Assembly (NCBI GenBank): GCA_964016885.1
Contig: OZ024741.1
Coordinates: 110,298,001 to 110,362,000 of the forward strand
Length of the DNA: 64,000 bases
Source: Eledone cirrhosa
Taxonomy: Eukaryota
Direction of reading: 5' to 3'
Shown here: positions 20,936 to 58,338 of the stretch, piece by piece
How the letters are laid out: each line of letters opens with the position of its first letter
Numbering within the stretch: position 1 is the first letter of the stretch
The notes under the pieces: generated by a model
The model's input: the letters and a program-made list of their open reading frames with translations, nothing else
Database searches by the model: none
What the model was told of the DNA's origin: nothing
Program-made: the position numbers and the translations under genes

Positions 20936-20963
20936 GTATATATATATATGTATATATATATAT

Positions 20964-21635: not shown

Positions 21636-22081
21636 TTTGACATAATCATCGAATATTGTTTAACAACTTAATACTTATATATGTATATATATTTATTATT
21701 ACATATATATATATTTGTGTGTTTATATATATATATATGTATGTATGTATGTATATGTGTATATATACATATATACTTATTGCGTATACATGTATGTATA
21801 TATATGTATGTATATGCGTATACATGTATGTAGATGTGTATATTATTATTATTATTATTATTATTATTGAATGCCATGGTTGACGGAGGCTCGGCTCTGT
21901 AAGGTATAGTAATTTTTAACCGTTAAAACAATTGTAAATTGTTTAAAACTTGAACCAAATTGTTGATAAAGACACCCTCCTCCTCGTGAGAGGGGTCTTT
22001 CTGTCCGTTATTTGGCCCTTCGGGGTTAAATAGCCAGTTATTGGGGTTTTGTACCCAAAATTTCATTTTAAACAAAAAAAC

Positions 22082-24182
22082 ATGGCTACCAAAAAAAAAA
22101 AAATTTCACACGTCACTCCCACTCATTCCGTCTTCTTCTTCCTCAATCATCACTACAGGAGAGAGAAGATTGTCTCTCTCCCTCCCTTCTTTAAATGTGT
22201 CTCTCTCCCTACCTTCTCTTTCGCAAGCGACGAAAGAAAAGAAAAGTCTCGTGCAAAGCGTGCAAGGTTTCTCCACGACGACGACGACAGCGACGAAACA
22301 GGTGTGCGGGAAATACGAAAACCCAGTTCATTCGTCTGACGTCAGGAATAATAGCAGTAGCAGCCGTAATAACAACAGCAACAGTGACAATGAAAACAAC
22401 AGTAGCAGCCGCAACAGCATCACCAGCAGCATAAACAACAACAGCATTAGCAGCAGCAACACCAACAACAACCACAGCAACAGCGGCGGAGGCAGTAGTC
22501 GTAGTACCTGCAGCAACAACAAAAGTACCAGCAGCTCTGACGACAACAACAACAGCAGAGAAAAACCAATCTCATTTGCAGGTATTGCGAAAAACCTGGA
22601 AACAATCCTCATAACAAATGAGGAATTAGAGGAAGCGAAGAAGATGGTGACAAAGAACGGACACCGAGCAATCTGCAAGGCAGCGAAAAATTTTTTCGAA
22701 ACCCAAGAGCACTGTACGGTCACGTACCGTACAGTAAGTACAAAATCCCGTAGGGTGGAAAGAGCCACAGAGGCCCAAATACAAAAAGCCTTGGGGTCTG
22801 TGTGGCAGAGGAAAACGCACATCACCCGAGGCAAAAAATACGCCACCGTAGACGTACTTTTTGCCACACCCCAGGAGGCAAAGGCCCAATCAGTAGTGAC
22901 CCTAAGGAGCGAGGAAATGGTGTTGGTGCCCTCCTACTGCGGGCAAAAAATTGTGAGGGTCAAACTGACCCACGTCCCCCCCGGAATGACCCCTTCTTGG
23001 CTGGCCGCGTCTGTCCTCGTCGGAATCGAGGACAAAACAACTGTACTGCAAGTACAGAAAAAAGTAAGAGAAGATTGGGTCGGCTCCTCCATTGAGATGC
23101 TAATCCAAACCAACCAGGAGTGCATCGAAGCTATCCCGGATGTGATAGACTTCGATAACGGCACTCAACTGCCCATAAGTGTTGAGGGCAAACGCCCGAA
23201 ATGCTTTCGCTGTGGATCGAAGACTCACCTCAGGGCCTTCTGCAACGAGAAGACCCTGAGAAAGGAGAAAACCCCCCTCCTCCCGAATCCGGTTCCACGG
23301 CTACCAGCAACAGGACAAGCGGCAACCAGGAACGATAGGTCCGTGGCACCCATACCCACTCCACGGAAATCAAAGACAGCAGCAGCAGTGGAAATATTAA
23401 CAACAACAACAGCAATACCAAATGCAGCTGCAACAGAGACTCCAGTGCAAACATCACCAACAACAACAAGTGAAAGAGTGGAGCTGGTACCCCTCCCCGA
23501 CCTTACAGAATCAGACATGGAGTGTGAGGTGGGAGAGGGATGGCAAAAGGTCTCAAGAAGGCACAAACGCAGAAGCAGCGCATCGTCGCCTTTGAAAAGG
23601 GAGGAAAGAAATGAGAAAAGGGTAAAGTCTACTGCAAAGAGACCCACAGCAGCAACACCACCAACACCATCACCACCCACACCAGCACCACCATCACCAC
23701 CGGCGACAACCCCACCGCCAACAACACCTTCAACACCACCACCACAAGCACCAACATCGCAAACACAACAACAAAACACACACACCCAGCAACAACGACA
23801 AGAAAATAGCAGAACCACACCCCACCCCCAGAAAAACAAATGCACGGCAATAAACACACACAACAAGAAACTAATGACTTACATAATTGAACACACAGAC
23901 ATTTCACAACAGGACTACATAATACCAGCACCAATCAAAACGCCAACTAACATAAGACTGCTAAAAATAGCACAGAAACAATACACAAACATTAAAACGA
24001 AATTCCCCAACGCAGTTGGTGATTTCAGGGACCTAGGAGGAACCATTAATCGAAGAGTATATTCAGACATTCTCTTAGAAGAGCCGACGACCAGCCGAAG
24101 GGACGATTCAACGGTCCCTTCACCAGACGATCAAGTGAAAAGGGATGTAAAAACCATCCCTCCTCTACCAAAAATACGGTAA
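22082..24182 (+). pseudogene. ORF1 copy 1, frameshifted just after the ATG
   Basis: An A13 run replaces AAAAAGAAA (+4 nt) after ATGGCTACC; the rest is intact, including CFRCGSKTHLRAFC. Could be a homopolymer sequencing error. Confidence 0.7.
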
Positions 24183-24217
24183 GTGGTCTTTCCCATCTTT
24201 TCCACTCTATTTTAAAC

Positions 24218-27200
24218 ATGACCTCACTCAGAATAGGCAGCATAAATGCGCGTGGCTTGGGGTCGTCATGGAAGCAGGGTCACCTGCTCAACGACCTCAG
24301 GTCACTAAACATAGATGTAGTGGCCATCAGCGAGACCAGAATCTCCGAAGCACGGGCCTTCGCACCGATCTTCGGCGGCTACGATGTGTACGCATCTCCC
24401 AGCCGTCCTGGATCGGGTGGAGGAGTTGCTGTGCTTTTTCGGAGAGGTTTGGATCTCGCCATACGGGCCATCTTCCTGGACCCAGAGGGTAAGCTGGTGG
24501 TGCTGGACGTGACCAGCGGAGACGGGCAAGCTTTCAGGCTAGTGGCCGTCTATGCCCCGACAGGAGCAGGGCGGCCTGATTTCTTCCGGCGTCTGGAGAC
24601 CTTTCTTGGAACGTCGCGCTCTTTAGTGTTAGTGGGCGACTGGAACGGGATCTTAGATGCACGCTGGGACTGTGTGGGATTAGCGGATAGGGGTGGAGGG
24701 TGCAAGAGCCTCACCAACCTGCTCAGGCGTTTTGAACTGTCTGACAGGTACCGATTGGATTTCCCGAATGTGCCAATGTGGACTTGGACAAACCGCATAG
24801 GGTCATCCAGATCATATCTAGATAGAGTATTTTGTAGGGAAATAGATAGGTCTAGCATAGGCTGTCCACAATTCAAGATAGTCAGCTACACGGACCACAA
24901 ATTCGTGATCTGTGTGCTTGACTTAGATAGGCTTCATAGACGAGGACCCGGCTACTGGAAGCTAAACGCGTCCTTACCAGCGCGCAAGGCCTACAGAGAC
25001 CGGATTAGCGAACTAGTTAAGCGGGCGTTGACGGGGGCCATCGTCAACAACAAGTGGTGGTTTGCTCTGAAAAGAGCGATTAGAATAGAATCGATTAGGT
25101 TTAGTAAGGCTTTAGCAATAGAGAAAAATAGAGCAGAGGGAGAACTAGTTAGAAAATTAGACGAGGCGCTTAGCAAAGGCATTGCGACCGACGTGCTTGC
25201 GGCGAAATTGGCCCTTGACCAATTCTTCAATGCAAAGCACGAAGGCTGCGTTGTCAGAGCTAGGGTGCGTGCTCTCAGACACGAGGGGACGAAAGCCGTT
25301 CAATGGGCCCGAGTGGCGGAGGCGCGTCGTGGCAACAAAGCCACGATCCGGTCTTTGGTGGACCACGACGGGCGCATGCTACTCGATCCCGGGCAAATGT
25401 GTGAAGCTTTTCAGCGACACTTCGCTCAGCTGTTCGGGGGCAGCGGGGGGCCGGGTAGAGGGATGGACTTTAGTGTCTACCTCGACGGACTGCCGCGGCT
25501 CTCGGCCACTGAGGCGAAGTGTTGCGAAAAGCCGATAACAGCCGCTGAAGTAAGGGAGGCAATGACTGGCTGCACAAGGGGTAAATCGCCTGGTTTGGAT
25601 GGTCTGCCCTATGAACTTTACGTACAGATGCCAGACTTGTTCGGAGGCCTCTTGGCGGACGTCTACTGCAACTGGCAACAGAACGGGAGAATTCCCAGTT
25701 CTGTGAGCCGAGGAGCGGTGGCACTGCTGAGAAAGGATCCGAACAAGGGGGATAACATAGACAATTTCCGGCCCATAACTCTGCTAAACACAGAGTTTAA
25801 GATTTTGGCCAAGGTGCTAGCAAAGAGGTTGGCGCTTGTCGTTGGTGGTCTGGTGGGAGAGGCGCAGACATGCGCCATTCCCGACAGATCCATCCACGAC
25901 AACCTCCACCTCATGCGATACATCGTAGAGAGGGTAGCTAGGGAACCTGGCACGGGTGGGTCCTTGATCAATTTAGATCAGTCGAAAGCTTTCGATAGGG
26001 TCGACCATCGTTACCTAGCGGCAGTCCTGAGGGCGGCTGGCTTTGGGCCCGTCTTCAGAGGCTGGATCGCTGCCATGCACAGCGACATCTGCTCTGTGGT
26101 GAGAGTGAACGGTCACCTGTCGGAACCGTTCAACATCATGCGCTCGGTCCGCCAAGGATGTCCCCTCTCGTCCCTCTTGTACGTATTGACTCTCGAGCCA
26201 TTACTGCACAAACTGGAGACGTTGAGGGGAGTCCCGCGCGAACTAGGATGCGGAAGATCCGTGTCAGCATATGCGGACGATGTCACCGTAGTGGTGTCGA
26301 ACGCCAAACACATCGAGGCGATCGGCACTACACTAAGAGAATACGAAGCGGTGACAGGAGCAATGATCAACCAGGAAAAGTCAGTGGGCCTGCAGCTCGG
26401 CACCTGGAGAGGCAGGTCCATGCCGTCCAACAGCGTCGTCGGGCGCTGGACGGACGGACCGGTTAAATTGCTAGGGGTCTGGTTCGGTCCGGACCTCCAG
26501 ACGGACAAAAACTGGGACGAGGTGACGAGCAGGGTGGCTTCTCTCACCCAGAAATGGGCGGAGAGGAAGCTATCCCTGAAAGGTCGAGCGGAGGTGGCTA
26601 ACGCGTACATCGCGTCTGTCATCTGCTACCGCCTAACCGTCGTACCTTGTCCTAAGCCTCGCCTGACTGCGCTGGAGCGTTTGCTCTTTCGCTTTTTGTG
26701 GAAGGGACGTGCTCCGATGGTCAGGCGGTCCATCTGTTGTCAACACCCGCTACGTGGAGGGCTGGGCATGCCGTGGCTGATGATGCGCAGGCACGCGCTC
26801 AGGCTACGACATCTCCACCTCTTCCTCGACGGTGATCAGGTGTGGTCGCCGTTTGCTAGACGCGTTTTTCCCCAGCTCGTTTCCTTGACGGAGCTGCAGT
26901 CCTGGGTCAAGCGAAGACCGAGAGGGAGCGCCTGGAGACTGGAATGTCTTCAGGCGCTCACAGCCCTCGACCAATCGGGCAATGTGATCGGTGGAAACTC
27001 CACCTCGGCGTTCTATAGAGGATTAGTGGAGGGGAAGAGCGACGACGTACTTGGGGAAACTCTAGGCGTCGACGAAAATCAACTAGCCAATCTCTTCGGA
27101 AGAACCTTCGGGCCAGGGCCTATGGACAACTTCCAGAAATCTCTGGCCTGGCAGTGCTACCGAGGAGCCTTGCCAGTTCGGGATAAACTCTACAGGCATG

Positions 27201-27637
27201 GAGGTGCCGTCAGCCGGGCATGTCCGAGATGCGCGCAGGGCGACGAAACCGTCCTGCACGCACTCGTCCAGTGTCCGAAAATTGCTGACTTGTGGGTTTA
27301 TGTCGAACACCTGCTGTCGCGTTTAGGACGGATCCAGCTATCATCTGGGTCCATCGTGAGGATTGCCCCGCCCTCCTCCTTTAGCCGGGAAGGGCAGGCA
27401 GTTTTTATCTGTCTGGTGGCCATGGCGAAAGAGATAGTATGGTGGACACGTTTGAAAGGGCTGAAGACGAGCACTTACCTCTTCGGTGATGCTCTGATTG
27501 ACTTTTTCAAATTTCATTTGAAAAGGAAAATCAGAGTAGAGAAGGAAGTGCTCTCTTCCCAGCATTTTGTTGAAAGATGGGTGAGAGAAGCAAGAATGGC
27601 CCGAGTGAATGGGCCGACTCTGAGTATATATCTGTAA
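24218..27637 (+). CDS. ORF2: APE endonuclease, reverse transcriptase, zinc finger (1139 aa)
   Basis: SINARG, ISETR, YAP, GDWN, LDR, TDH; PGLDG, FRPITLLN, LDQSKAFD, RQGCPLS, YADD; CPRC-x8-H-x4-C. Confidence 0.97.
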   Translation: MTSLRIGSINARGLGSSWKQGHLLNDLRSLNIDVVAISETRISEARAFAPIFGGYDVYASPSRPGSGGGVAVLFRRGLDLAIRAIFLDPEGKLVVLDVTSGDGQAFRLVAVYAPTGAGRPDFFRRLETFLGTSRSLVLVGDWNGILDARWDCVGLADRGGGCKSLTNLLRRFELSDRYRLDFPNVPMWTWTNRIGSSRSYLDRVFCREIDRSSIGCPQFKIVSYTDHKFVICVLDLDRLHRRGPGYWKLNASLPARKAYRDRISELVKRALTGAIVNNKWWFALKRAIRIESIRFSKALAIEKNRAEGELVRKLDEALSKGIATDVLAAKLALDQFFNAKHEGCVVRARVRALRHEGTKAVQWARVAEARRGNKATIRSLVDHDGRMLLDPGQMCEAFQRHFAQLFGGSGGPGRGMDFSVYLDGLPRLSATEAKCCEKPITAAEVREAMTGCTRGKSPGLDGLPYELYVQMPDLFGGLLADVYCNWQQNGRIPSSVSRGAVALLRKDPNKGDNIDNFRPITLLNTEFKILAKVLAKRLALVVGGLVGEAQTCAIPDRSIHDNLHLMRYIVERVAREPGTGGSLINLDQSKAFDRVDHRYLAAVLRAAGFGPVFRGWIAAMHSDICSVVRVNGHLSEPFNIMRSVRQGCPLSSLLYVLTLEPLLHKLETLRGVPRELGCGRSVSAYADDVTVVVSNAKHIEAIGTTLREYEAVTGAMINQEKSVGLQLGTWRGRSMPSNSVVGRWTDGPVKLLGVWFGPDLQTDKNWDEVTSRVASLTQKWAERKLSLKGRAEVANAYIASVICYRLTVVPCPKPRLTALERLLFRFLWKGRAPMVRRSICCQHPLRGGLGMPWLMMRRHALRLRHLHLFLDGDQVWSPFARRVFPQLVSLTELQSWVKRRPRGSAWRLECLQALTALDQSGNVIGGNSTSAFYRGLVEGKSDDVLGETLGVDENQLANLFGRTFGPGPMDNFQKSLAWQCYRGALPVRDKLYRHGGAVSRACPRCAQGDETVLHALVQCPKIADLWVYVEHLLSRLGRIQLSSGSIVRIAPPSSFSREGQAVFICLVAMAKEIVWWTRLKGLKTSTYLFGDALIDFFKFHLKRKIRVEKEVLSSQHFVERWVREARMARVNGPTLSIYL

Positions 27638-27898
27638 ACTAAAGGTGGAAAACTGGGAGAGGGCACTTGCCTTGGTGGTCAGGGTCATTGTGGCTTTTTA
27701 CTGGGCTTTCTCCACAAATGTCCCTCCGAAGTCTCCCCCCTATTGGGGAATTTTTCATTGTTATTTTCATTGTTATTTTTGTTACATCCTCTATTTTTGT
27801 TTTTTTTACACGCAGAAATGCCCATTTGTACCGTCCTGCATTGTCCTGCACTGTCCTTAATGTCTACTTTATGTAAACCCTTGTGGTTAATAAAGAAA

Positions 27899-27948
<50 letters not shown>

Positions 27949-28161
27949 GAATGCCATGGTTGACGGAGGCTCGGCTCTGTAAGGTATAGTAATTTTTAAC
28001 CGTTAAAACAATTGTAAATTGTTTAAAACTTGAACCAAATTGTTGATAAAGACACCCTCCTCCTCGTGAGAGGGGTCTTTCTGTCCGTTATTTGGCCCTT
28101 CGGGGTTAAATAACCAGTTATTGGGGTTTTGTACCCAAAATTTCATTTTAAACAAAAAAAC

Positions 28162-30258
28162 ATGGCTACCAAAAAGAAATTTCATACGTCACTCCCACTC
28201 ATTCCGTCTTCTTCTTCCTCAATCATCACTACAGCAGAGAGAAGATTGTCTCTCTCCCTCCCTTCTTTAAATGTGTCTCTCTCCCTCCCTTCTCTTTCGC
28301 AAGCGACGAAAGAAAAGAAAAGTCTCGTGCAAAGCGTGCAAGGTTTCTCCACGACGACGACGACAGCGACGAAACAGGTGTGCGGGAAATACGAAAACCC
28401 AGTTCATTCGTCTGACGTCAGGAATAATAGCAGTAGCAGCCGTAATAACAACAGCAACAGTGACAATGAAAACAACAGTAGCAGCCGCAACAGCATCACC
28501 AGCAGCATAAACAACAACAGCATTAGCAGCAGCAACACCAACAACAACCACAGCAACAGCGGCGGAGGCAGTAGTCGTAGTACCTGCAGCAACAACAAAA
28601 GTACCAGCAGCTCTGACGACAACAACAACAGCAGAGAAAAACCAATCTCATTTGCAGGTATTGCGAAAAACCTGGAAACAATCCTCATAACAAATGAGGA
28701 ATTAGAGGAAGCGAAGAAGATGGTGACAAAGAACGGACACCGAGCAATCTGCAAGGCAGCGAAAAATTTTTTCGAAACCCAAGAGCACTGTACGGTCACG
28801 TACCGTACAGTAAGTACAAAATCCCGTAGGGTGGAAAGAGCCACAGAGGCCCAAATACAAAAAGCCTTGGGGTCTGTGTGGCAGAGGAAAACGCACATCA
28901 CCCGAGGCAAAAAATACGCCACCGTAGACGTACTTTTTGCCACACCCCAGGAGGCAAAGGCCCAATCAGTAGTGACCCTAAGGAGCGAGGAAATGGTGTT
29001 GGTGCCCTCCTACTGCGGGCAAAAAATTGTGAGGGTCAAACTGACCCACGTCCCCCCCGGAATGACCCCTTCTTGGCTGGCCGCGTCTGTCCTCGTCGGA
29101 ATCGAGGACAAAACAACTGTACTGCAAGTACAGAAAAAAGTAAGAGAAGATTGGGTCGGCTCCTCCATTGAGATGCTAATCCAAACCAACCAGGAGTGCA
29201 TCGAAGCTATCCCGGATGTGATAGACTTCGATAACGGCACTCAACTGCCCATAAGTGTTGAGGGCAAACGCCCGAAATGCTTTCGCTGTGGATCGAAGAC
29301 TCACCTCAGGGCCTTCTGCAACGAGAAGACCATGAGAAAGGAGAAAACCCCCCTCCTCCCGAATCCGGTTCCACGGCTACCAGCAACAGGACAAGCGGCA
29401 ACCAGGAACGATAGGTCCGTGGCACCCATACCCACTCCACGGAAATCAAAGACAGCAGCAGCAGTGGAAATATTAACAACAACAACAGCAATACCAAATG
29501 CAGCTGCAACAGAGACTCCAGTGCAAACATCACCAACAACAACAAGTGAAAGAGTGGAGCTGGTACCCCTCCCCGACCTTACAGAATCAGACATGGAGTG
29601 TGAGGTGGGAGAGGGATGGCAAAAGGTCTCAAGAAGGCACAAACGCAGAAGCAGCGCATCGTCGCCTTTGAAAAGGGAGGAAAGAAATGAGAAAAGGGTA
29701 AAGTCTACTGCAAAGAGACCCACAGCAGCAACACCACCAACACCATCACCACCCACACCAGCACCACCATCACCACCGGCGACAACCCCACCGCCAACAA
29801 CACCTTCAACACCACCACCACAAGCACCAACATCGCAAACACAACAACAAAACACACACACCCAGCAACAACGACAAGAAAATAGCAGAACCACACCCCA
29901 CTCCCAGAAAAACAAATGCACGGCAATAAACACACACAACAAGAAACTAATGACTTACATAATTGAACACACAGACATTTCACAACAGGACTACATAATA
30001 CCAGCACCAATCAAAACGCCAACTAACATAAGACTGCTAAAAATAGCACAGAAACAATACACAAACATTAAAACGAAATTCCCCAACGCAGTTGGTGATT
30101 TCAGGGACCTAGGAGGAACCATTAATCGAAGAGTATATTCAGACATTCTCTTAGAAGAGCCGACGACCAGCCGAAGGGACGATTCAACGGTCCCTTCACC
30201 AGACGATCAAGTGAAAAGGGATGTAAAAACCATCCCTCCTCTACCAAAAGTACGGTAA
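28162..30258 (+). CDS. ORF1 nucleic-acid-binding protein with CCHC zinc knuckle (698 aa from the ATG)
   Basis: First ATG (MATKKK); S/N-rich N-terminus, C-x2-C-x4-H-x4-C, P/T-rich linker. Confidence 0.9.
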   Translation: MATKKKFHTSLPLIPSSSSSIITTAERRLSLSLPSLNVSLSLPSLSQATKEKKSLVQSVQGFSTTTTTATKQVCGKYENPVHSSDVRNNSSSSRNNNSNSDNENNSSSRNSITSSINNNSISSSNTNNNHSNSGGGSSRSTCSNNKSTSSSDDNNNSREKPISFAGIAKNLETILITNEELEEAKKMVTKNGHRAICKAAKNFFETQEHCTVTYRTVSTKSRRVERATEAQIQKALGSVWQRKTHITRGKKYATVDVLFATPQEAKAQSVVTLRSEEMVLVPSYCGQKIVRVKLTHVPPGMTPSWLAASVLVGIEDKTTVLQVQKKVREDWVGSSIEMLIQTNQECIEAIPDVIDFDNGTQLPISVEGKRPKCFRCGSKTHLRAFCNEKTMRKEKTPLLPNPVPRLPATGQAATRNDRSVAPIPTPRKSKTAAAVEILTTTTAIPNAAATETPVQTSPTTTSERVELVPLPDLTESDMECEVGEGWQKVSRRHKRRSSASSPLKREERNEKRVKSTAKRPTAATPPTPSPPTPAPPSPPATTPPPTTPSTPPPQAPTSQTQQQNTHTQQQRQENSRTTPHSQKNKCTAINTHNKKLMTYIIEHTDISQQDYIIPAPIKTPTNIRLLKIAQKQYTNIKTKFPNAVGDFRDLGGTINRRVYSDILLEEPTTSRRDDSTVPSPDDQVKRDVKTIPPLPKVR

Positions 30259-30293
30259 GTGGTCTTTCCCATCTTTTCCACTCTATTTTAAAC

Positions 30294-33200
30294 ATGACCT
30301 CACTCAGAATAGGCAGCATAAATGCGCGTGGCTTGGGGTCGTCATGGAAGCAGGGTCACCTGCTCAACGACCTCAGGTCACTAAACATAGATGTAGTGGC
30401 CATCAGCGAGACCAGAATCTCCGAAGCACGGGCCTTCGCACCGATCTTCGGCGGCTACGATGTGTACGCATCTCCCAGCCGTCCTGGATCGGGTGGAGGA
30501 GTTGCTGTGCTTTTTCGGAGAGGTTTGGATCTCGCCATACGGGCCATCTTCCTGGACCCAGAGGGTAAGCTGGTGGTGCTGGACGTGACCAGCGGAGACG
30601 GGCAAGCTTTCAGGCTAGTGGCCGTCTATGCCCCGACAGGAGCAGGGCGGCCTGATTTCTTCCGGCGTCTGGAGACCTTTCTTGGAACGTCCCGCTCTTT
30701 AGTGTTAGTGGGCGACTGGAACGGGATCTTAGATGCACGCTGGGACTGTGTGGGATTAGCGGATAGGGGTGGAGGGTGCAAGAGCCTCACCAACCTGCTC
30801 AGGCGTTTTGAACTGTCTGACAGGTACCGATTGGATTTCCCGAATGTGCCAATGTGGACTTGGACAAACCGCATAGGGTCATCCAGATCATATCTAGATA
30901 GAGTATTTTGTAGGGAAATAGATAGGTCTAGCATAGGCTGTCCACAATTCAAGATAGTCAGCTACACGGACCACAAATTCGTGACCTGTGTGCTTGACTT
31001 AGATAGGCTTCATAGACGAGGACCCGGCTACTGGAAGCTAAACGCGTCCTTACCAGCGCGCAAGGCCTACAGAGACCGGATTAGCGAACTAGTTAAGCGG
31101 GCGTTGACGGGGGCCATCGTCAACAACAAGTGGTGGTTTGCTCTGAAAAGAGCGATTAGAATAGAATCGATTAGGTTTAGTAAGGCTTTAGCAATAGAGA
31201 AAAATAGAGCAGAGGGAGAACTAGTTAGAAAATTAGACGAGGCGCTTAGCAAAGGCATTGCGACCGACGTGCTTGCGGCGAAATTGGCCCTTGACCAATT
31301 CTTCAATGCAAAGCACGAAGGCTGCGTTGTCAGAGCTAGGGTGCGTGCTCTCAGACACGAGGGGACGAAAGCCGTTCAATGGGCCCGAGTGGCGGAGGCG
31401 CGTCGTGGCAACAAAGCCACGATCCGGTCTTTGGTGGACCACGACGGGCGCATGCTACTCGATCCCGGGCAAATGTGTGAAGCTTTTCAGCGACACTTCG
31501 CTCAGCTGTTCGGGGGCAGCGGGGGGCCGGGTAGAGGGATGGACTTTAGTGTCTACCTCGACGGACTGCCGCGGCTCTCGGCCACTGAGGCGAAGTGTTG
31601 CGAAAAGCCGATAACAGCCGCTGAAGTACGGGAGGCAATGACTGGCTGCACAAGGGGTAAATCGCCTGGTTTGGATGGTCTGCCCTATGAACTTTACGTA
31701 CAGATGCCAGACTTGTTCGGAGGCCTCTTGGCGGACGTCTACTGCAACTGGCAACAGAACGGGAGAATTCCCAGTTCTGTGAGCCGAGGAGCGGTGGCAC
31801 TGCTGAGAAAGGATCCGAACAAGGGGGATAACATAGACAATTTCCGGCCCATAACTCTGCTAAACACAGAGTTTAAGATTTTGGCCAAGGTGCTAGCAAA
31901 GAGGTTGGCGCTTGTCGTTGGTGGTCTGGTGGGAGAGGCGCAGACATGCGCCATTCCCGACAGATCCATCCACGACAACCTCCACCTCATGCGATACATC
32001 GTAGAGAGGGTAGCTAGGGAACCTGGCACGGGTGGGTCCTTGATCAATTTAGATCAGTCGAAAGCTTTCGATAGGGTCGACCATCGTTACCTAGCGGCAG
32101 TCCTGAGGGCGGCTGGCTTTGGGCCCGTCTTCAGAGGCTGGATCGCTGCCATGCACAGCGACATCTGCTCTGTGGTGAGAGTGAACGGTCACCTGTCGGA
32201 ACCGTTCAACATCATGCGCTCGGTCCGCCAAGGATGTCCCCTCTCGTCCCTCTTGTACGTATTGACTCTCGAGCCATTACTGCACAAACTGGAGACGTTG
32301 AGGGGAGTCCCGCGCGAACTAGGATGCGGAAGATCCGTGTCAGCATATGCGGACGATGTCACCGTAGTGGTGTCGAACGCCAAACACATCGAGGCGATCG
32401 GCACTACACTAAGAGAATACGAAGCGGTGACAGGAGCAATGATCAACCAGGAAAAGTCAGTGGGCCTGCAGCTCGGCACCTGGAGAGGCAGGTCCATGCC
32501 GTCCAACAGCGTCGTCGGGCGCTGGACGGACGGACCGGTTAAATTGCTAGGGGTCTGGTTCGGTCCGGACCTCCAGACGGACAAAAACTGGGACGAGGTG
32601 ACGAGCAGGGTGGCTTCTCTCACCCAGAAATGGGCGGAGAGGAAGCTATCCCTGAAAGGTCGAGCGGAGGTGGCTAACGCGTACATCGCGTCTGTCATCT
32701 GCTACCGCCTAACCGTCGTACCTTGTCCTAAGCCTCGCCTGACTGCGCTGGAGCGTTTGCTCTTTCGCTTTTTGTGGAAGGGACGTGCTCCGATGGTCAG
32801 GCGGTCCATCTGTTGTCAACACCCGCTACGTGGAGGGCTGGGCATGCCGTGGCTGATGATGCGCAGGCACGCGCTCAGGCTACGACATCTCCACCTCTTC
32901 CTCGACGGTGATCAGGTGTGGTCGCCGTTTGCTAGACGCGTTTTTCCCCAGCTCGTTTCCTTGACGGAGCTGCAGTCCTGGGTCAAGCGAAGACCGAGAG
33001 GGAGCGCCTGGAGACTGGAATGTCTTCAGGCGCTCACAGCCCTCGACCAATCGGGCAATGTGATCGGTGGAAACTCCACCTCGGCGTTCTATAGAGGATT
33101 AGTGGAGGGGAAGAGCGACGACGTACTTGGGGAAACTCTAGGCGTCGACGAAAATCAACTAGCCAATCTCTTCGGAAGAACCTTCGGGCCAGGGCCTATG

Positions 33201-33713
33201 GACAACTTCCAGAAATCTCTGGCCTGGCAGTGCTACCGAGGAGCCTTGCCAGTTCGGGATAAACTCTACAGGCATGGAGGTGCCGTCAGCCGGGCATGTC
33301 CGAGATGCGCGCAGGGCGACGAAACCGTCCTGCACGCACTCGTCCAGTGTCCGAAAATTGCTGACTTGTGGGTTTATGTCGAACACCTGCTGTCGCGTTT
33401 AGGACGGATCCAGCTATCATCTGAGTCTATCGTGAGGATTGCCCCGCCCTCCTCCTTTAGCCGGGAAGGGCAGGCAGTTTTTATCTGTCTGGTGGCCATG
33501 GCGAAAGAGATAGTATGGTGGACACGTTTGAAAGGGCTGAAGACGAGCACTTACCTCTTCGGTGATGCTCTGATTGACTTTTTCAAATTTCATTTGAAAA
33601 GGAAAATCAGAGTAGAGAAGGAAGTGCTCTCTTCCCAGCATTTTGTTGAAAGATGGGTGAGAGAAGCAAGAATGGCCCGAGTGAATGGGCCGACTCTGAG
33701 TATATATCTGTAA
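30294..33713 (+). CDS. ORF2 APE-RT-ZnF
   Basis: Intact 1139 aa, same motifs as copy 1. Confidence 0.97.
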   Translation: MTSLRIGSINARGLGSSWKQGHLLNDLRSLNIDVVAISETRISEARAFAPIFGGYDVYASPSRPGSGGGVAVLFRRGLDLAIRAIFLDPEGKLVVLDVTSGDGQAFRLVAVYAPTGAGRPDFFRRLETFLGTSRSLVLVGDWNGILDARWDCVGLADRGGGCKSLTNLLRRFELSDRYRLDFPNVPMWTWTNRIGSSRSYLDRVFCREIDRSSIGCPQFKIVSYTDHKFVTCVLDLDRLHRRGPGYWKLNASLPARKAYRDRISELVKRALTGAIVNNKWWFALKRAIRIESIRFSKALAIEKNRAEGELVRKLDEALSKGIATDVLAAKLALDQFFNAKHEGCVVRARVRALRHEGTKAVQWARVAEARRGNKATIRSLVDHDGRMLLDPGQMCEAFQRHFAQLFGGSGGPGRGMDFSVYLDGLPRLSATEAKCCEKPITAAEVREAMTGCTRGKSPGLDGLPYELYVQMPDLFGGLLADVYCNWQQNGRIPSSVSRGAVALLRKDPNKGDNIDNFRPITLLNTEFKILAKVLAKRLALVVGGLVGEAQTCAIPDRSIHDNLHLMRYIVERVAREPGTGGSLINLDQSKAFDRVDHRYLAAVLRAAGFGPVFRGWIAAMHSDICSVVRVNGHLSEPFNIMRSVRQGCPLSSLLYVLTLEPLLHKLETLRGVPRELGCGRSVSAYADDVTVVVSNAKHIEAIGTTLREYEAVTGAMINQEKSVGLQLGTWRGRSMPSNSVVGRWTDGPVKLLGVWFGPDLQTDKNWDEVTSRVASLTQKWAERKLSLKGRAEVANAYIASVICYRLTVVPCPKPRLTALERLLFRFLWKGRAPMVRRSICCQHPLRGGLGMPWLMMRRHALRLRHLHLFLDGDQVWSPFARRVFPQLVSLTELQSWVKRRPRGSAWRLECLQALTALDQSGNVIGGNSTSAFYRGLVEGKSDDVLGETLGVDENQLANLFGRTFGPGPMDNFQKSLAWQCYRGALPVRDKLYRHGGAVSRACPRCAQGDETVLHALVQCPKIADLWVYVEHLLSRLGRIQLSSESIVRIAPPSSFSREGQAVFICLVAMAKEIVWWTRLKGLKTSTYLFGDALIDFFKFHLKRKIRVEKEVLSSQHFVERWVREARMARVNGPTLSIYL

Positions 33714-33974
33714 ACTAAAGGTGGAAAACTGGGAGAGGGCACTTGCCTTGGTGGTCAGGGTCATTGTGGCTTTTTACTGGGCTTTCTCCACAAATGTCCC
33801 TCCGAAGTCTCCCCCCTATTGGGGAATTTTTCATTGTTATTTTCATTGTTATTTTTGTTACATCCTCTATTTTTGTTTTTTTTACACGCAGAAATGCCCA
33901 TTTGTACCGTCCTGCATTGTCCTGCACTGTCCTTAATGTCTACTTTATGTAAACCCTTGTGGTTAATAAAGAAA

Positions 33975-34036
<62 letters not shown>

Positions 34037-34249
34037 GAATGCCATGGTTGACGGAGGCTCGGCTCTGTAAGGTATAGTAATTTTTAACCGTTAAAACAAT
34101 TGTAAATTGTTTAAAACTTGAACCAAATTGTTGATAAAGACACCCTCCTCCTCGTGAGAGGGGTCTTTCTGTCCGTTATTTGGCCCTTCGGGGTTAAATA
34201 ACCAGTTATTGGGGTTTTGTACCCAAAATTTCATTTTAAACAAAAAAAC

Positions 34250-36346
34250 ATGGCTACCAAAAAGAAATTTCATACGTCACTCCCACTCATTCCGTCTTCT
34301 TCTTCCTCAATCATCACTACAGCAGAGAGAAGATTGTCTCTCTCCCTCCCTTCTTTAAATGTGTCTCTCTCCCTCCCTTCTCTTTCGCAAGCGACGAAAG
34401 AAAAGAAAAGTCTCGTGCAAAGCGTGCAAGGTTTCTCCACGACGACGACGACAGCGACGAAACAGGTGTGCGGGAAATACGAAAACCCAGTTCATTCGTC
34501 TGACGTCAGGAATAATAGCAGTAGCAGCCGTAATAACAACAGCAACAGTGACAATGAAAACAACAGTAGCAGCCGCAACAGCATCACCAGCAGCATAAAC
34601 AACAACAGCATTAGCAGCAGCAACACCAACAACAACCACAGCAACAGCGGCGGAGGCAGTAGTCGTAGTACCTGCAGCAACAACAAAAGTACCAGCAGCT
34701 CTGACGACAACAACAACAGCAGAGAAAAACCAATCTCATTTGCAGGTATTGCGAAAAACCTGGAAACAATCCTCATAACAAATGAGGAATTAGAGGAAGC
34801 GAAGAAGATGGTGACAAAGAACGGACACCGAGCAATCTGCAAGGCAGCGAAAAATTTTTTCGAAACCCAAGAGCACTGTACGGTCACGTACCGTACAGTA
34901 AGTACAAAATCCCGTAGGGTGGAAAGAGCCACAGAGGCCCAAATACAAAAAGCCTTGGGGTCTGTGTGGCAGAGGAAAACGCACATCACCCGAGGCAAAA
35001 AATACGCCACCGTAGACGTACTTTTTGCCACACCCCAGGAGGCAAAGGCCCAATCAGTAGTGACCCTAAGGAGCGAGGAAATGGTGTTGGTGCCCTCCTA
35101 CTGCGGGCAAAAAATTGTGAGGGTCAAACTGACCCACGTCCCCCCCGGAATGACCCCTTCTTGGCTGGCCGCGTCTGTCCTCGTCGGAATCGAGGACAAA
35201 ACAACTGTACTGCAAGTACAGAAAAAAGTAAGAGAAGATTGGGTCGGCTCCTCCATTGAGATGCTAATCCAAACCAACCAGGAGTGCATCGAAGCTATCC
35301 CGGATGTGATAGACTTCGATAACGGCACTCAACTGCCCATAAGTGTTGAGGGCAAACGCCCGAAATGCTTTCGCTGTGGATCGAAGACTCACCTCAGGGC
35401 CTTCTGCAACGAGAAGACCATGAGAAAGGAGAAAACCCCCCTCCTCCCGAATCCGGTTCCACGGCTACCAGCAACAGGACAAGCGGCAACCAGGAACGAT
35501 AGGTCCGTGGCACCCATACCCACTCCACGGAAATCAAAGACAGCAGCAGCAGTGGAAATATTAACAACAACAACAGCAATACCAAATGCAGCTGCAACAG
35601 AGACTCCAGTGCAAACATCACCAACAACAACAAGTGAAAGAGTGGAGCTGGTACCCCTCCCCGACCTTACAGAATCAGACATGGAGTGTGAGGTGGGAGA
35701 GGGATGGCAAAAGGTCTCAAGAAGGCACAAACGCAGAAGCAGCGCATCGTCGCCTTTGAAAAGGGAGGAAAGAAATGAGAAAAGGGTAAAGTCTACTGCA
35801 AAGAGACCCACAGCAGCAACACCACCAACACCATCACCACCCACACCAGCACCACCATCACCACCGGCGACAACCCCACCGCCAACAACACCTTCAACAC
35901 CACCACCACAAGCACCAACATCGCAAACACAACAACAAAACACACACACCCAGCAACAACGACAAGAAAATAGCAGAACCACACCCCACTCCCAGAAAAA
36001 CAAATGCACGGCAATAAACACACACAACAAGAAACTAATGACTTACATAATTGAACACACAGACATTTCACAACAGGACTACATAATACCAGCACCAATC
36101 AAAACGCCAACTAACATAAGACTGCTAAAAATAGCACAGAAACAATACACAAACATTAAAACGAAATTCCCCAACGCAGTTGGTGATTTCAGGGACCTAG
36201 GAGGAACCATTAATCGAAGAGTATATTCAGACATTCTCTTAGAAGAGCCGACGACCAGCCGAAGGGACGATTCAACGGTCCCTTCACCAGACGATCAAGT
36301 GAAAAGGGATGTAAAAACCATCCCTCCTCTACCAAAAGTACGGTAA
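34250..36346 (+). CDS. ORF1 (CCHC knuckle)
   Basis: Intact from the ATG. Confidence 0.9.
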   Translation: MATKKKFHTSLPLIPSSSSSIITTAERRLSLSLPSLNVSLSLPSLSQATKEKKSLVQSVQGFSTTTTTATKQVCGKYENPVHSSDVRNNSSSSRNNNSNSDNENNSSSRNSITSSINNNSISSSNTNNNHSNSGGGSSRSTCSNNKSTSSSDDNNNSREKPISFAGIAKNLETILITNEELEEAKKMVTKNGHRAICKAAKNFFETQEHCTVTYRTVSTKSRRVERATEAQIQKALGSVWQRKTHITRGKKYATVDVLFATPQEAKAQSVVTLRSEEMVLVPSYCGQKIVRVKLTHVPPGMTPSWLAASVLVGIEDKTTVLQVQKKVREDWVGSSIEMLIQTNQECIEAIPDVIDFDNGTQLPISVEGKRPKCFRCGSKTHLRAFCNEKTMRKEKTPLLPNPVPRLPATGQAATRNDRSVAPIPTPRKSKTAAAVEILTTTTAIPNAAATETPVQTSPTTTSERVELVPLPDLTESDMECEVGEGWQKVSRRHKRRSSASSPLKREERNEKRVKSTAKRPTAATPPTPSPPTPAPPSPPATTPPPTTPSTPPPQAPTSQTQQQNTHTQQQRQENSRTTPHSQKNKCTAINTHNKKLMTYIIEHTDISQQDYIIPAPIKTPTNIRLLKIAQKQYTNIKTKFPNAVGDFRDLGGTINRRVYSDILLEEPTTSRRDDSTVPSPDDQVKRDVKTIPPLPKVR

Positions 36347-36381
36347 GTGGTCTTTCCCATCTTTTCCACTCTATTTTAAAC

Positions 36382-39300
36382 ATGACCTCACTCAGAATAG
36401 GCAGCATAAATGCGCGTGGCTTGGGGTCGTCATGGAAGCAGGGTCACCTGCTCAACGACCTCAGGTCACTAAACATAGATGTAGTGGCCATCAGCGAGAC
36501 CAGAATCTCCGAAGCACGGGCCTTCGCACCGATCTTCGGCGGCTACGATGTGTACGCATCTCCCAGCCGTCCTGGATCGGGTGGAGGAGTTGCTGTGCTT
36601 TTTCGGAGAGGTTTGGATCTCGCCATACGGGCCATCTTCCTGGACCCAGAGGGTAAGCTGGTGGTGCTGGACGTGACCAGCGGAGACGGGCAAGCTTTCA
36701 GGCTAGTGGCCGTCTATGCCCCGACAGGAGCAGGGCGGCCTGATTTCTTCCGGCGTCTGGAGACCTTTCTTGGAACGTCCCGCTCTTTAGTGTTAGTGGG
36801 CGACTGGAACGGGATCTTAGATGCACGCTGGGACTGTGTGGGATTAGCGGATAGGGGTGGAGGGTGCAAGAGCCTCACCAACCTGCTCAGGCGTTTTGAA
36901 CTGTCTGACAGGTACCGATTGGATTTCCCGAATGTGCCAATGTGGACTTGGACAAACCGCATAGGGTCATCCAGATCATATCTAGATAGAGTATTTTGTA
37001 GGGAAATAGATAGGTCTAGCATAGGCTGTCCACAATTCAAGATAGTCAGCTACACGGACCACAAATTCGTGACCTGTGTGCTTGACTTAGATAGGCTTCA
37101 TAGACGAGGACCCGGCTACTGGAAGCTAAACGCGTCCTTACCAGCGCGCAAGGCCTACAGAGACCGGATTAGCGAACTAGTTAAGCGGGCGTTGACGGGG
37201 GCCATCGTCAACAACAAGTGGTGGTTTGCTCTGAAAAGAGCGATTAGAATAGAATCGATTAGGTTTAGTAAGGCTTTAGCAATAGAGAAAAATAGAGCAG
37301 AGGGAGAACTAGTTAGAAAATTAGACGAGGCGCTTAGCAAAGGCATTGCGACCGACGTGCTTGCGGCGAAATTGGCCCTTGACCAATTCTTCAATGCAAA
37401 GCACGAAGGCTGCGTTGTCAGAGCTAGGGTGCGTGCTCTCAGACACGAGGGGACGAAAGCCGTTCAATGGGCCCGAGTGGCGGAGGCGCGTCGTGGCAAC
37501 AAAGCCACGATCCGGTCTTTGGTGGACCACGACGGGCGCATGCTACTCGATCCCGGGCAAATGTGTGAAGCTTTTCAGCGACACTTCACTCAGCTGTTCG
37601 GGGGCAGCGGGGGGCCGGGTAGAGGGATGGACTTTAGTGTCTACCTCGACGGACTGCCGCGGCTCTCGGCCACTGAGGCGAAGTGTTGCGAAAAGCCGAT
37701 AACAGCCGCTGAAGTACGGGAGGCAATGACTGGCTGCACAAGGGGTAAATCGCCTGGTTTGGATGGTCTGCCCTATGAACTTTACGTACAGATGCCAGAC
37801 TTGTTCGGAGGCCTCTTGGCGGACGTCTACTGCAACTGGCAACAGAACGGGAGAATTCCCAGTTCTGTGAGCCGAGGAGCGGTGGCACTGCTGAGAAAGG
37901 ATCCGAACAAGGGGGATAACATAGACAATTTCCGGCCCATAACTCTGCTAAACACAGAGTTTAAGATTTTGGCCAAGGTGCTAGCAAAGAGGTTGGCGCT
38001 TGTCGTTGGTGGTCTGGTGGGAGAGGCGCAGACATGCGCCATTCCCGACAGATCCATCCACGACAACCTCCACCTCATGCGATACATCGTAGAGAGGGTA
38101 GCTAGGGAACCTGGCACGGGTGGGTCCTTGATCAATTTAGATCAGTCGAAAGCTTTCGATAGGGTCGACCATCGTTACCTAGCGGCAGTCCTGAGGGCGG
38201 CTGGCTTTGGGCCCGTCTTCAGAGGCTGGATCGCTGCCATGCACAGCGACATCTGCTCTGTGGTGAGAGTGAACGGTCACCTGTCGGAACCGTTCAACAT
38301 CATGCGCTCGGTCCGCCAAGGATGTCCCCTCTCGTCCCTCTTGTACGTATTGACTCTCGAGCCATTACTGCACAAACTGGAGACGTTGAGGGGAGTCCCG
38401 CGCGAACTAGGATGCGGAAGATCCGTGTCAGCATATGCGGACGATGTCACCGTAGTGGTGTCGAACGCCAAACACATCGAGGCGATCGGCACTACACTAA
38501 GAGAATACGAAGCGGTGACAGGAGCAATGATCAACCAGGAAAAGTCAGTGGGCCTGCAGCTCGGCACCTGGAGAGGCAGGTCCATGCCGTCCAACAGCGT
38601 CGTCGGGCGCTGGACGGACGGACCGGTTAAATTGCTAGGGGTCTGGTTCGGTCCGGACCTCCAGACGGACAAAAACTGGGACGAGGTGACGAGCAGGGTG
38701 GCTTCTCTCACCCAGAAATGGGCGGAGAGGAAGCTATCCCTGAAAGGTCGAGCGGAGGTGGCTAACGCGTACATCGCGTCTGTCATCTGCTACCGCCTAA
38801 CCGTCGTACCTTGTCCTAAGCCTCGCCTGACTGCGCTGGAGCGTTTGCTCTTTCGCTTTTTGTGGATGGGACGTGCTCCGATGGTCAGGCGGTCCATCTG
38901 TTGTCAACACCCGCTACGTGGAGGGCTGGGCATGCCGTGGCTGATGATGCGCAGGCACGCGCTCAGGCTACGACATCTCCACCTCTTCCTCGACGGTGAT
39001 CAGGTGTGGTCGCCGTTTGCTAGACGCGTTTTTCCCCAGCTCGTTTCCTTGACGGAGCTGCAGTCCTGGGTCAAGCGAAGACCGAGAGGGAGCGCCTGGA
39101 GACTGGAATGTCTTCAGGCGCTCACAGCCCTCGACCAATCGGGCAATGTGATCGGTGGAAACTCCACCTCAGCGTTCTATAGAGGATTAGTGGAGGGGAA
39201 GAGCGACGACGTACTTGGGGAAACTCTAGGCGTCGACGAAAATCAACTAGCCAATCTCTTCGGAAGAACTTTCGGGCCAGGGCCTATGGACAACTTCCAG

Positions 39301-39801
39301 AAATCTCTGGCCTGGCAGTGCTACCGAGGAGCCTTGCCAGTTCGGGATAAACTCTACAGGCATGGAGGTGCCGTCAGCCGGGCATGTCCGAGATGCGCGC
39401 AGGGCGACGAAACCGTCCTGCACGCACTCGTCCAGTGTCCGAAAATTGCTGACTTGTGGGTTTATGTCGAACACCTGCTGTCGCGTTTAGGACGGATCCA
39501 GCTATCATCTGAGTCTATCGTGAGGATTGCCCCGCCCTCCTCCTTTAGCCGGGAAGGGCAGGCAGTTTTTATCTGTCTGGTGGCCATGGCGAAAGAGATA
39601 GTATGGTGGACACGTTTGAAAGGGCTGAAGACGAGCACTTACCTCTTCGGTGATGCTCTGATTGACTTTTTCAAATTTCATTTGAAAAGGAAAATCAGAG
39701 TAGAGAAGGAAGTGCTCTCTTCCCAGCATTTTGTTGAAAGATGGGTGAGAGAAGCAAGAATGGCCCGAGTGAATGGGCCGACTCTGAGTATATATCTGTA
39801 A
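36382..39801 (+). CDS. ORF2 APE-RT-ZnF
   Basis: Intact 1139 aa. Confidence 0.97.
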   Translation: MTSLRIGSINARGLGSSWKQGHLLNDLRSLNIDVVAISETRISEARAFAPIFGGYDVYASPSRPGSGGGVAVLFRRGLDLAIRAIFLDPEGKLVVLDVTSGDGQAFRLVAVYAPTGAGRPDFFRRLETFLGTSRSLVLVGDWNGILDARWDCVGLADRGGGCKSLTNLLRRFELSDRYRLDFPNVPMWTWTNRIGSSRSYLDRVFCREIDRSSIGCPQFKIVSYTDHKFVTCVLDLDRLHRRGPGYWKLNASLPARKAYRDRISELVKRALTGAIVNNKWWFALKRAIRIESIRFSKALAIEKNRAEGELVRKLDEALSKGIATDVLAAKLALDQFFNAKHEGCVVRARVRALRHEGTKAVQWARVAEARRGNKATIRSLVDHDGRMLLDPGQMCEAFQRHFTQLFGGSGGPGRGMDFSVYLDGLPRLSATEAKCCEKPITAAEVREAMTGCTRGKSPGLDGLPYELYVQMPDLFGGLLADVYCNWQQNGRIPSSVSRGAVALLRKDPNKGDNIDNFRPITLLNTEFKILAKVLAKRLALVVGGLVGEAQTCAIPDRSIHDNLHLMRYIVERVAREPGTGGSLINLDQSKAFDRVDHRYLAAVLRAAGFGPVFRGWIAAMHSDICSVVRVNGHLSEPFNIMRSVRQGCPLSSLLYVLTLEPLLHKLETLRGVPRELGCGRSVSAYADDVTVVVSNAKHIEAIGTTLREYEAVTGAMINQEKSVGLQLGTWRGRSMPSNSVVGRWTDGPVKLLGVWFGPDLQTDKNWDEVTSRVASLTQKWAERKLSLKGRAEVANAYIASVICYRLTVVPCPKPRLTALERLLFRFLWMGRAPMVRRSICCQHPLRGGLGMPWLMMRRHALRLRHLHLFLDGDQVWSPFARRVFPQLVSLTELQSWVKRRPRGSAWRLECLQALTALDQSGNVIGGNSTSAFYRGLVEGKSDDVLGETLGVDENQLANLFGRTFGPGPMDNFQKSLAWQCYRGALPVRDKLYRHGGAVSRACPRCAQGDETVLHALVQCPKIADLWVYVEHLLSRLGRIQLSSESIVRIAPPSSFSREGQAVFICLVAMAKEIVWWTRLKGLKTSTYLFGDALIDFFKFHLKRKIRVEKEVLSSQHFVERWVREARMARVNGPTLSIYL

Positions 39802-40062
39802 ACTAAAGGTGGAAAACTGGGAGAGGGCACTTGCCTTGGTGGTCAGGGTCATTGTGGCTTTTTACTGGGCTTTCTCCACAAATGTCCCTCCGAAGTCTCC
39901 CCCCTATTGGGGAATTTTTCATTGTTATTTTCATTGTTATTTTTGTTACATCCTCTGTTTTTGTTTTTTTTACACGCAGAAATGCCCATTTGTACCGTCC
40001 TGCATTGTCCTGCACTGTCCTTAATGTCTACTTTATGTAAACCCTTGTGGTTAATAAAGAAA

Positions 40063-40121
<59 letters not shown>

Positions 40122-40334
40122 GAATGCCATGGTTGACGGAGGCTCGGCTCTGTAAGGTATAGTAATTTTTAACCGTTAAAACAATTGTAAATTGTTTAAA
40201 ACTTGAACCAAATTGTTGATAAAGACACCCTCCTCCTCGTGAGAGGGGTCTTTCTGTCCGTTATTTGGCCCTTCGGGGTTAAATAACCAGTTATTGGGGT
40301 TTTGTACCCAAAATTTCATTTTAAACAAAAAAAC

Positions 40335-42431: not shown

Positions 42432-42466
42432 GTGGTCTTTCCCATCTTTTCCACTCTATTTTAAAC

Positions 42467-45886: not shown

Positions 45887-46146
45887 ACTAAAGGTGGAAA
45901 ACTGGGAGAGGGCACTTGCCTTGGTGGTCAGGGTCATTGTGGCTTTTTACTGGGCTTTCTCCACAAATGTCCCTCCGAAGTCTCCCCCCTATTGGGGAAT
46001 TTTTCATTGTTATTTTCATTGTTATTTTTGTTACATCCTCTGTTTTTGTTTTTTTACACGCAGAAATGCCCATTTGTACCGTCCTGCATTGTCCTGCACT
46101 GTCCTTAATGTCTACTTTATGTAAACCCTTGTGGTTAATAAAGAAA

Positions 46147-46187
<41 letters not shown>

Positions 46188-46400
46188 GAATGCCATGGTT
46201 GACGGAGGCTCGGCTCTGTAAGGTATAGTAATTTTTAACCGTTAAAACAATTGTAAATTGTTTAAAACTTGAACCAAATTGTTGATAAAGACACCCTCCT
46301 CCTCGTGAGAGGGGTCTTTCTGTCCGTTATTTGGCCCTTCGGGGTTAAATAACCAGTTATTGGGGTTTTGTACCCAAAATTTCATTTTAAACAAAAAAAC

Positions 46401-48491: not shown

Positions 48492-48526
48492 GTGGTCTTT
48501 CCCATCTTTTCCACTCTATTTTAAAC

Positions 48527-51946: not shown

Positions 51947-52207
51947 ACTAAAGGTGGAAAACTGGGAGAGGGCACTTGCCTTGGTGGTCAGGGTCATTGT
52001 GGCTTTTTACTGGGCTTTCTCCACAAATGTTCCTCCGAAGTCTCCCCCCTATTGGGGAATTTTTCATTGTTATTTTCATTGTTATTTTTGTTACATCCTC
52101 TATTTTTGTTTTTTTTACACGCAGAAATGCCCATTTGTACCGTCCTGCATTGTCCTGCACTGTCCTTAATGTCTACTTTATGTAAACCCTTGTGGTTAAT
52201 AAAGAAA

Positions 52208-52257
<50 letters not shown>

Positions 52258-54567: not shown

Positions 54568-54602
54568 GTGGTCTTTCCCATCTTTTCCACTCTATTTTAA
54601 AC

Positions 54603-58282: not shown

Positions 58283-58338
<56 letters not shown>

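Follow-up and report, generated by a model that had tools for sequence, protein, structure and literature searches.

In the window analysed here, i.e., a stretch of DNA of 64 kb, six head-to-tail copies of one 6.03-kb two-ORF LINE lie within an (ATT)n tract. The explanation we favour, with slightly better than even confidence, is that the element has repeatedly inserted into its own ATT tail. The RNA would start at or a few bases upstream of the first nucleotide of the element (G1), the cDNA end would anneal to ATT, and a predicted pseudoknot at the 5′ end would be marginal, family-specific and non-catalytic. In the following, nucleotide (nt) positions are counted from G1, coordinates are those of the window, and all features of the array are on the plus strand.

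Array anatomy

The six copies start at 21869, 27949, 34037, 40122, 46188 and 52258 with identical opening bases. As stated in the preliminary description of this DNA, none of them is 5′-truncated (0/6), i.e., all are full-length at the 5′ end. Each unit consists of a 213-nt 5′UTR, ORF1, ORF2 and a 3′UTR with an AATAAA signal that is followed by six bases and an (ATT)13-20 tail. Copy 1 (21869..27900) is preceded by (ATT)9 (21842..21868), which is likely the original target microsatellite, and its own (ATT)16 tail (27901..27948) is at the same time the upstream flank of copy 2. Including their tails, the subsequent copies span 27949..34036 (copy 2, (ATT)20), 34037..40121 (copy 3, (ATT)19), 40122..46187 (copy 4, (ATT)13), 46188..52257 (copy 5, (ATT)16) and 52258..58338 (copy 6, (ATT)18, then unique flank). 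That is, in-phase ATT tracts of 9, 16, 20, 19, 13 and 16 repeats precede copies 1 to 6. The AATAAA poly(A) signal (27889..27894 in copy 1) is placed 6 nt ahead of the tail and is identical in every copy. It is thus found 45-66 nt upstream of the next copy's G1 at all five internal junctions. The seven ATT junctions of the window all belong to this one locus, and the two other (AAT)n tracts of the window carry no insertion.

Further elements were observed around the array. A spacer-free fold-back of two 345-nt arms with 98% complementarity (20955-21644) ends 225 nt ahead of it and is either a palindromic element or an assembly artefact. At 3492-7179, 344-nt terminal inverted repeats (98%) flank an ORF of 293 aa (4727-5608, minus strand), for which a Pfam search gave no match. 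A 218-aa RT fragment of a different retroelement, scoring under the Pfam cut-off, is located at 61214-61870.

Encoded proteins and classification

In copy 2, ORF1 (28162..30258) encodes 698 aa with a CCHC knuckle, and ORF2 (30294..33713) encodes 1139 aa with APE endonuclease, RT and zf-RVT domains (Pfam PF03372, PF00078 and PF13966). The ORF1 length of 698 aa is typical, with 696 aa in copy 5. In copy 1, ORF2 (24218-27637) is intact and ORF1 carries a frameshift caused by 4 nt inserted into an A-run close to its start. Given the APE/RT/zinc-domain ORF2 and the separate CCHC ORF1, the element is a Tx1/L1-group LINE.

The pattern CxxCxxxxHxxxxC is present in ORF1 and its homologs. Neither a Pfam search nor a word search with ORF1 gave a match. 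An HMMER search with ORF1 returned 298 homologs, the alignment of which is too loose for a locus scan. Where the source is named, which is the case for 7 of 10 homologs looked up, it is Octopus sinensis, O. vulgaris, O. bimaculoides or Argonauta, such that the host is likely an octopod. Furthermore, 29-88% of the words of the element recur in 14 sequencing-run rows (11 organism labels, 10 studies), and close kin of the LINE family are therefore present in several species. None of the runs listed as containing the element is from RNA, which has no bearing on its expression, and rows with a small share were considered only when aligned. For O. vulgaris, an annotation reports 13 recently active L1-Tx1 families and 421 near-full-length insertions (PMC13282606). 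No relatives of the element were found in viral contigs, and the exact 22-nt 5′ pattern has 0 matches in metagenome contigs.

The best reading of the family is that of a young, (ATT)n-associated Tx1, which is new within the microsatellite-associated Tx1 kind as far as our literature search reached. Among the titles and abstract openings covered by this search, neither a description of the family nor a Tx1 5′ ribozyme was found; Repbase, Dfam and subscription papers were outside its scope, and the family may already be catalogued. Among distant Tx1-like elements, one adjoins a U2 snRNA fragment (L008:5815-5977) and one lies between U1 snRNA genes (L091:3036-3199 and 9961-10137).

Uniform 5′ junctions

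All six junctions read (ATT)n|GAATGCC, in the same repeat phase and with 0 extra bases. The claim that all copies begin at the same nucleotide thus stands insofar as the opening bases are identical in 6/6 copies, but G1 is merely the first non-ATT base. RNA starts anywhere in the tract therefore leave the same junction, i.e., the true 5′ end is G1 or anywhere in the ATT tract.

R2 provides a precedent for such junctions. They are uniform if upstream target sequence is retained on the RNA and variable if cleavage takes place at the junction itself, and R2 P1 stems also use target sequence (PMC3774820). Because R2 junctions are uniform with the upstream target on the RNA, the uniform junctions of the window would, by analogy, point to an RNA that extends into (AUU)n rather than being cut at G1. 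Processing had been suggested as a possibility in the preliminary description from the uniform ends together with the fold. The fold is indeed non-canonical as described; following the R2 precedent, however, uniform ends do not imply processing at G1. More generally, identical 5′ ends within a microsatellite are no evidence of RNA processing.

Predicted pseudoknot and 5′UTR folding

The three helices that had been paired by eye in the first 55 nt are recovered as P1 (nt 3-7/35-39), P2 (nt 8-15/48-55) and P3 (nt 15-20/27-32). In copy 1, the 5′ strands of P1 and P2 are located at 21871..21875 and 21876..21883, respectively, where the last A of the latter is shared with P3. The P3 hairpin (21883..21900) has a 6-nt loop and is followed by the 3′ strand of P1 (21903..21907), a P1′-P2′ joiner with no C and no GG (21908..21916), and the 3′ strand of P2 (21916..21923), which lies inside a near-palindrome. 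The helix order P1-P2-P3-P3′-P1′-P2′ is the HDV strand order, as had been noted. P1 comprises 5 bp including one G-U pair, and P2 is reduced to 7 bp when P3 also forms, A15 being common to both.

The summed stacking energy of P1, P2 and P3 is -28.3 kcal/mol, a value matched by 15/2000 dinucleotide shuffles. In a repeat of the shuffle test on 60 nt, 2/300 reach the stacking of the three helices. For one topology that was chosen after the fact, we consider this moderate evidence for the modelled knot. The nested fold of the first 57 nt is ordinary (z = 0.06). Nested folding by ViennaRNA, which cannot form P1 and P2 together, results for the full UTR in pair probabilities of 0.82-0.97 for P3, ~0.09 for P1 and ~0.15 for P2. 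That is, P3 is the only well-populated helix, and the probabilities of P1 and P2 climb to ~0.25-0.3 with the tail attached. Nucleotides 40-45 can be paired with the last 6 nt of the upstream (AUU)n, which extends P1 across a 2-nt bulge with a gain of ~1 kcal/mol. For nt 52-58, an alternative partner exists in nt 12-18.

P1, P2 and P3 are invariant in the six copies, as are the first 164 nt as a whole. Given 34 substitution sites per ~6040 nt, only ~0.9 substitutions are expected in 164 nt, such that this invariance alone is not notable.

Downstream of the knot, nt 92-217 are strongly folded (z = -3.16, 0/200 shuffles). The region features a stable hairpin with the CCUCGUG loop region (21968..22000) and a 12-bp hairpin with a UUCG tetraloop (22007..22034). 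The single 5′UTR difference among the six copies (nt 165) falls into the UUCG hairpin and keeps the respective pair as U-G. Between knot and hairpins, three AACAAT/ATTGTT motifs are found (21927..21964), two of which are the arms of one small hairpin. This count of 3 compares to 0.23 expected (0/1000 shuffles, with the motif chosen after the fact). The motifs are candidate promoter-factor sites, and their enrichment is compatible with an internal promoter that uses HMG-box-type sites.

We also compared the region 21830-22250 in 4 of the 24 listed runs, with 21830-21874, i.e., the tract and the first six bases of the element, masked as repeat; this provided a diverged homolog contig (X18, depth 2.2). 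It covers nt 35-211 with 22 differences, 12 of which were placed. Among the latter, none is located in nt 35-83, one breaks a pair in the nt 100-132 hairpin, one corresponds to the allele that copies 2-6 share, and the others are outside both strong hairpins. As the 12 bases upstream of nt 35 fail to align, X18 represents either a copy whose truncation point lies within the knot or a homolog in which P3 differs. A 38-nt match in another contig (X17) looks like chance. In a raw-read run, 21875-22054 received no reads, which in view of filters and low depth does not indicate absence. The knot is likely a non-catalytic fold limited to this LINE family.

Comparison with self-cleaving ribozymes

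The preliminary description had listed P1.1, P4 and an obvious catalytic C as missing, such that the fold would be no canonical HDV fold, which agrees with both our helix layout and our descriptor search. HDV-like ribozymes have a P1 of ~7 nt (PMC3774820). Here, P1 starts at nt 3 with G1 and A2 unpaired, and AA separates P3′ from P1′, i.e., we find neither a ~7-bp P1 from G1 nor a P1′ directly after P3′. With regard to P1.1, no G directly follows P1′. With regard to the catalytic C, nt 40-48 hold no C; even ribozymes that lack P4 need one where J4/2 begins (PMC10879173).

A relaxed-loop HDV descriptor applied to positions -300..+500 gave no match. When searching Rfam with the junction, 13 matches are reported for E up to 10, all of which are far under the gathering score and none of which is a ribozyme. 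At gathering score, an Rfam search of 20 distant Tx1-like loci reveals only U1 and U2 snRNA and no ribozyme. The core motifs of hammerhead, twister and pistol ribozymes are absent. The P3 loop holds CUCG, a likeness to HDV L3. Another candidate, the CCUCGUG loop (nt 114-120), resembles HDV L3 as well and was ruled out given that it has no P1/P1.1 context. On these models, the 5′ fold is not an HDV-like ribozyme. The proposed self-cleaving structure is left without support, i.e., there is no P1.1, no C in the joiner and no descriptor or Rfam ribozyme match.

Differences among the copies

Pairs of copies differ at 5-20 sites. Among the coding differences, 15/29 are synonymous, while 26-33% are expected (26-27% at twofold transition weight). 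The respective binomial p-values are 0.004, 0.012 and 0.028 for expectations of 27%, 30% and 33%. Neutral DNA duplication would not yield this excess, and the variants have therefore passed selection on proteins. The possibility that uniform ends arise only from DNA-level duplication, which had been named as an argument against RNA-level processing, is thus at odds with the 15/29 synonymous coding differences.

Shared variants form a mosaic, i.e., copies 2 and 3 as well as copies 4 and 5 group in the first 3.7 kb, and copies 3, 4 and 6 group in the 3′ part. Over the first 3.7 kb, copies 2 and 3 show only 1 differing site. Differences private to one copy are grouped in tracts (copy 1 nt 165-343, copy 4 nt 3561-4323). 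The best fit to these observations is that several insertions derive from different masters, together with some exchange or conversion. The number of independent starts lies between one and six and is probably several.

A sister lineage as natural control

A GTDB scan identified arrays of a related element, with ORF2 41% identical, that make up animal-type contigs in a bacterial bin (G001); 37/39 related loci of the scan lie there. G001 is a GTDB species-representative bin labelled Arenicella, and its tandem Tx1 arrays (L055-L090, L093-L108) have intact ORF2. The animal-type contigs are likely host contamination. In a quick tree, sister ORF2 and window ORF2 fall in one clade (SH-aLRT 100); this tree contains the U1- and U2-adjacent elements (L091, L008), is without named Tx1 references, and its deep branching among groups is weak.

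Sister units end in a hairpin plus AATAAA without a tail, such that here, too, AATAAA is found just ahead of the next unit. Between the units, there are linkers of ~11-18 nt that also occur in unique flanks like target duplications, which is what double insertion predicts (PMC5932611). Readable sequence follows 64 distinct 3′ ends, of which 57 lead into a full-length unit, 3 into a truncated unit and 4 into flank. Full-length units are thus found at 57/60 internal junctions, and two of the three truncated units are identical. In one subfamily, the arrays of five contigs share the T-run at which the units start, with slight length variation. Within-array ORF2 variants comprise 34 synonymous vs. 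25 other changes on 14/16 contigs, the other two having a single intact unit.

A three-helix knot that beats shuffles is found in 0/9 sister 5′ ends with two windows each (18), the best of which is matched by 43/150. Since full-length sister arrays exist without the knot, mostly full-length arrays are a lineage trait for which the fold is not needed. The sister 5′UTRs are unrelated to that of the window element. The knot is therefore dispensable in general, but it does not follow that it is idle in the window family. The ATTGTT/AACAAT motif is enriched in 9/15 sister UTRs (0/1000 shuffles each), absent in 3 and unenriched in 3.

Other observations concern the architecture of the sister elements. 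In L056-L093, one type of ORF2 and 3′UTR is joined to several unlike 5′UTR and ORF1 starts, which suggests 5′-end swapping. In a conserved 3′UTR block (L059:5640-5790 and homologs), a hairpin of the GCC-loop-GGC type with CUYGU in the loop is accompanied by a second hairpin before AATAAA. For one of its pairs, two-sided changes are present in 5/9 sequences. The 3′ end of the window element has a similar CUUGU-loop hairpin before AATAAA, and this type of hairpin is a candidate RT recognition signal. A by-eye likeness between the 5′ end of the window element and the conserved sister 3′UTR motif was discarded, since nhmmer gave no match at E up to 10. G001 also contains a tandem array of an LTR-type element with a period of ~8 kb (L105, G001:C16).

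Discussion

In the repeated-insertion reading, each insertion would leave a new (ATT)n target. The RNA would either be transcribed from an internal Pol II promoter or be a product of read-through ending within the tract. With an RNA 5′ end anywhere in (AUU)n, the cDNA 3′ end would be complementary to the upstream flank, which would enable precise second-strand priming and a junction that is always ATT|G. For some adjacent copies (2 and 3), duplication or conversion of the DNA itself probably contributed as well. The knot, if formed, would most likely serve modest 5′ stabilisation or protein binding without cleavage. Promoter and start site are putative, and the ATTGTT motif is absent from 3/15 sister UTRs and unenriched in 3 more. 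The following observations also speak against this reading. The knot beats shuffles, coincides with the very 5′ end, shows loop lengths that are plausible, and can be extended by pairing with the tail. The mosaic sharing of variants fits unequal exchange as well. Finally, it is one locus of the LINE family that is seen in full.

An unlikely though not negligible source of the uniform starts is the amplification of one or two founders by unequal exchange between ATT tracts or units, where gene conversion from other genomic copies imports variants and the six starts reflect one or two events. Neighbours indeed share variants in a mosaic, offset pattern, with copies 2 and 3 near-identical over 3.7 kb, and the singletons are clustered in tracts. 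In G001, two identical truncated units are adjacent, and an LTR-type element is also arranged as a tandem array. The synonymous excess, on the other hand, needs variants from actively transposing lineages, and only 2/3 of the 5′-half groupings are neighbours, which chance gives in 4/15 pairings. Rather improbable, in our estimate, is a route to unit-length RNA via the poly(A) signal. Host 3′-end cleavage falls 10-30 nt downstream of AAUAAA; with AAUAAA 45-66 nt before G1, it would therefore land inside the (AUU)n tail. Xrn2/Xrn1 would trim the downstream piece until stopped by the knot, as xrRNAs stop Xrn1 via a ring-like pseudoknot around the 5′ end, which would leave uncapped unit-length RNA with few AUU repeats in front. 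AATAAA position and tail lengths fit this route at all five internal junctions. So do the shuffle-beating knot at the very 5′ end, its possible tail pairing and the strong structure of the rest of the UTR (z = -3.16), as cap-independent translation would need it. Yet P1 is short (5 bp, one of them G-U), nested folding populates both P1 and P2 weakly, there is no Rfam match, and the sister lineage has AATAAA before the next unit and still no knot. R2 can be read both ways, i.e., its HDV-like fold raises template use partly through structure, while a catalytically dead mutant is strongly impaired, such that the fold alone is insufficient there (PMC11331408).

We assign a similarly low probability to the model of an operon-like array, in which poly(A) cleavage would free the next unit, a tail-clamped, non-catalytic knot of HDV order would halt the exonuclease, and the templates would re-insert precisely into ATT tails. 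If true, the job of R2's ribozyme would be done by an xrRNA carried on a retrotransposon or, with lower likelihood, by a new class of ribozyme. Least credible of all is a new self-cleaving ribozyme that combines the outer HDV pseudoknot with another active site and cuts in the upstream (AUU)n or before G1. It would account for the HDV strand order and the P2/P3 adjacency, and it has a precedent in R2 and L1Tc, where a ribozyme separates tandem copies (PMC3383444; PMC6765202). However, the joiner lacks a C, P1.1 is missing, P1 and P3 have just 5 and 6 bp, the descriptor is negative, and no Rfam ribozyme is found at the junction or in the 20 distant Tx1-like loci. Moreover, a cut exactly at G1 would predict variable junctions, and in the literature on Tx1, ribozyme and retrotransposon, covered mostly as listed entries, no report of a Tx1 ribozyme is evident.

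Known systems share parts of this picture. Kibi, Koshi and crocodilian microsatellite-targeting Tx1 families are, like the window element, two-ORF elements with an APE endonuclease that reside in microsatellites, and sequential tandem insertions are described for the Tx1-mobilised SINEU-3 (PMC4494074). Their targets are (TC)n, (TTC)n, (TTCC)n and (TTTC)n rather than (ATT)n, and the window element differs from them by its likely octopod host and by six autonomous full-length copies being stacked (PMC4494074). R1-type double-insertion arrays likewise consist of head-to-tail units with target sequence in between and later expansion by unequal exchange. In most Drosophila non-LTR tandems, in contrast, the tail is joined to a truncated copy, (PMC5932611), whereas 6/6 window copies are full-length and 57/60 internal sister junctions lead to full-length units.

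With regard to the 5′ end, R2 with its ribozyme cutting upstream in 28S shares the uniform junctions, which in R2 are due to upstream target on the RNA, and its P1 can include target bases. In contrast, R2 has a full HDV-like ribozyme with P1.1 and catalytic C, while the window element, an APE-type LINE, has neither (PMC3774820). L1Tc with Pr77/L1TcRz is also an APE-type tandem LINE, and by this likeness the first ~60-77 nt could be promoter and structured RNA at once; L1TcRz is a proven HDV-like ribozyme, whereas the window 5′ end fails the HDV features (PMC3383444). Minimal HDV-like/theta ribozymes resemble the window 5′ end in their length of ~55-60 nt, the absence of P4 and the same outer strand order, but in them the nested double pseudoknot is retained and the catalytic C occupies the first position of J4/2, both of which the window fold lacks (PMC10879173).

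Should Xrn1/Xrn2 be stopped by the knot after poly(A) cleavage, this would constitute a new LINE route to unit-length RNA. As a naturally occurring 5′ protection module of 55 nt, the knot would then also be of interest for RNA-templated gene insertion, the efficiency of which is limited by 5′ stability (PMC11331408). For the LINE lineage itself, which is likely from octopods, the arrays mean on the favoured reading that mostly full-length copies are stacked by re-using the element's own 3′ linker as target, a behaviour that is unsurprising in kind and useful for TE biology.
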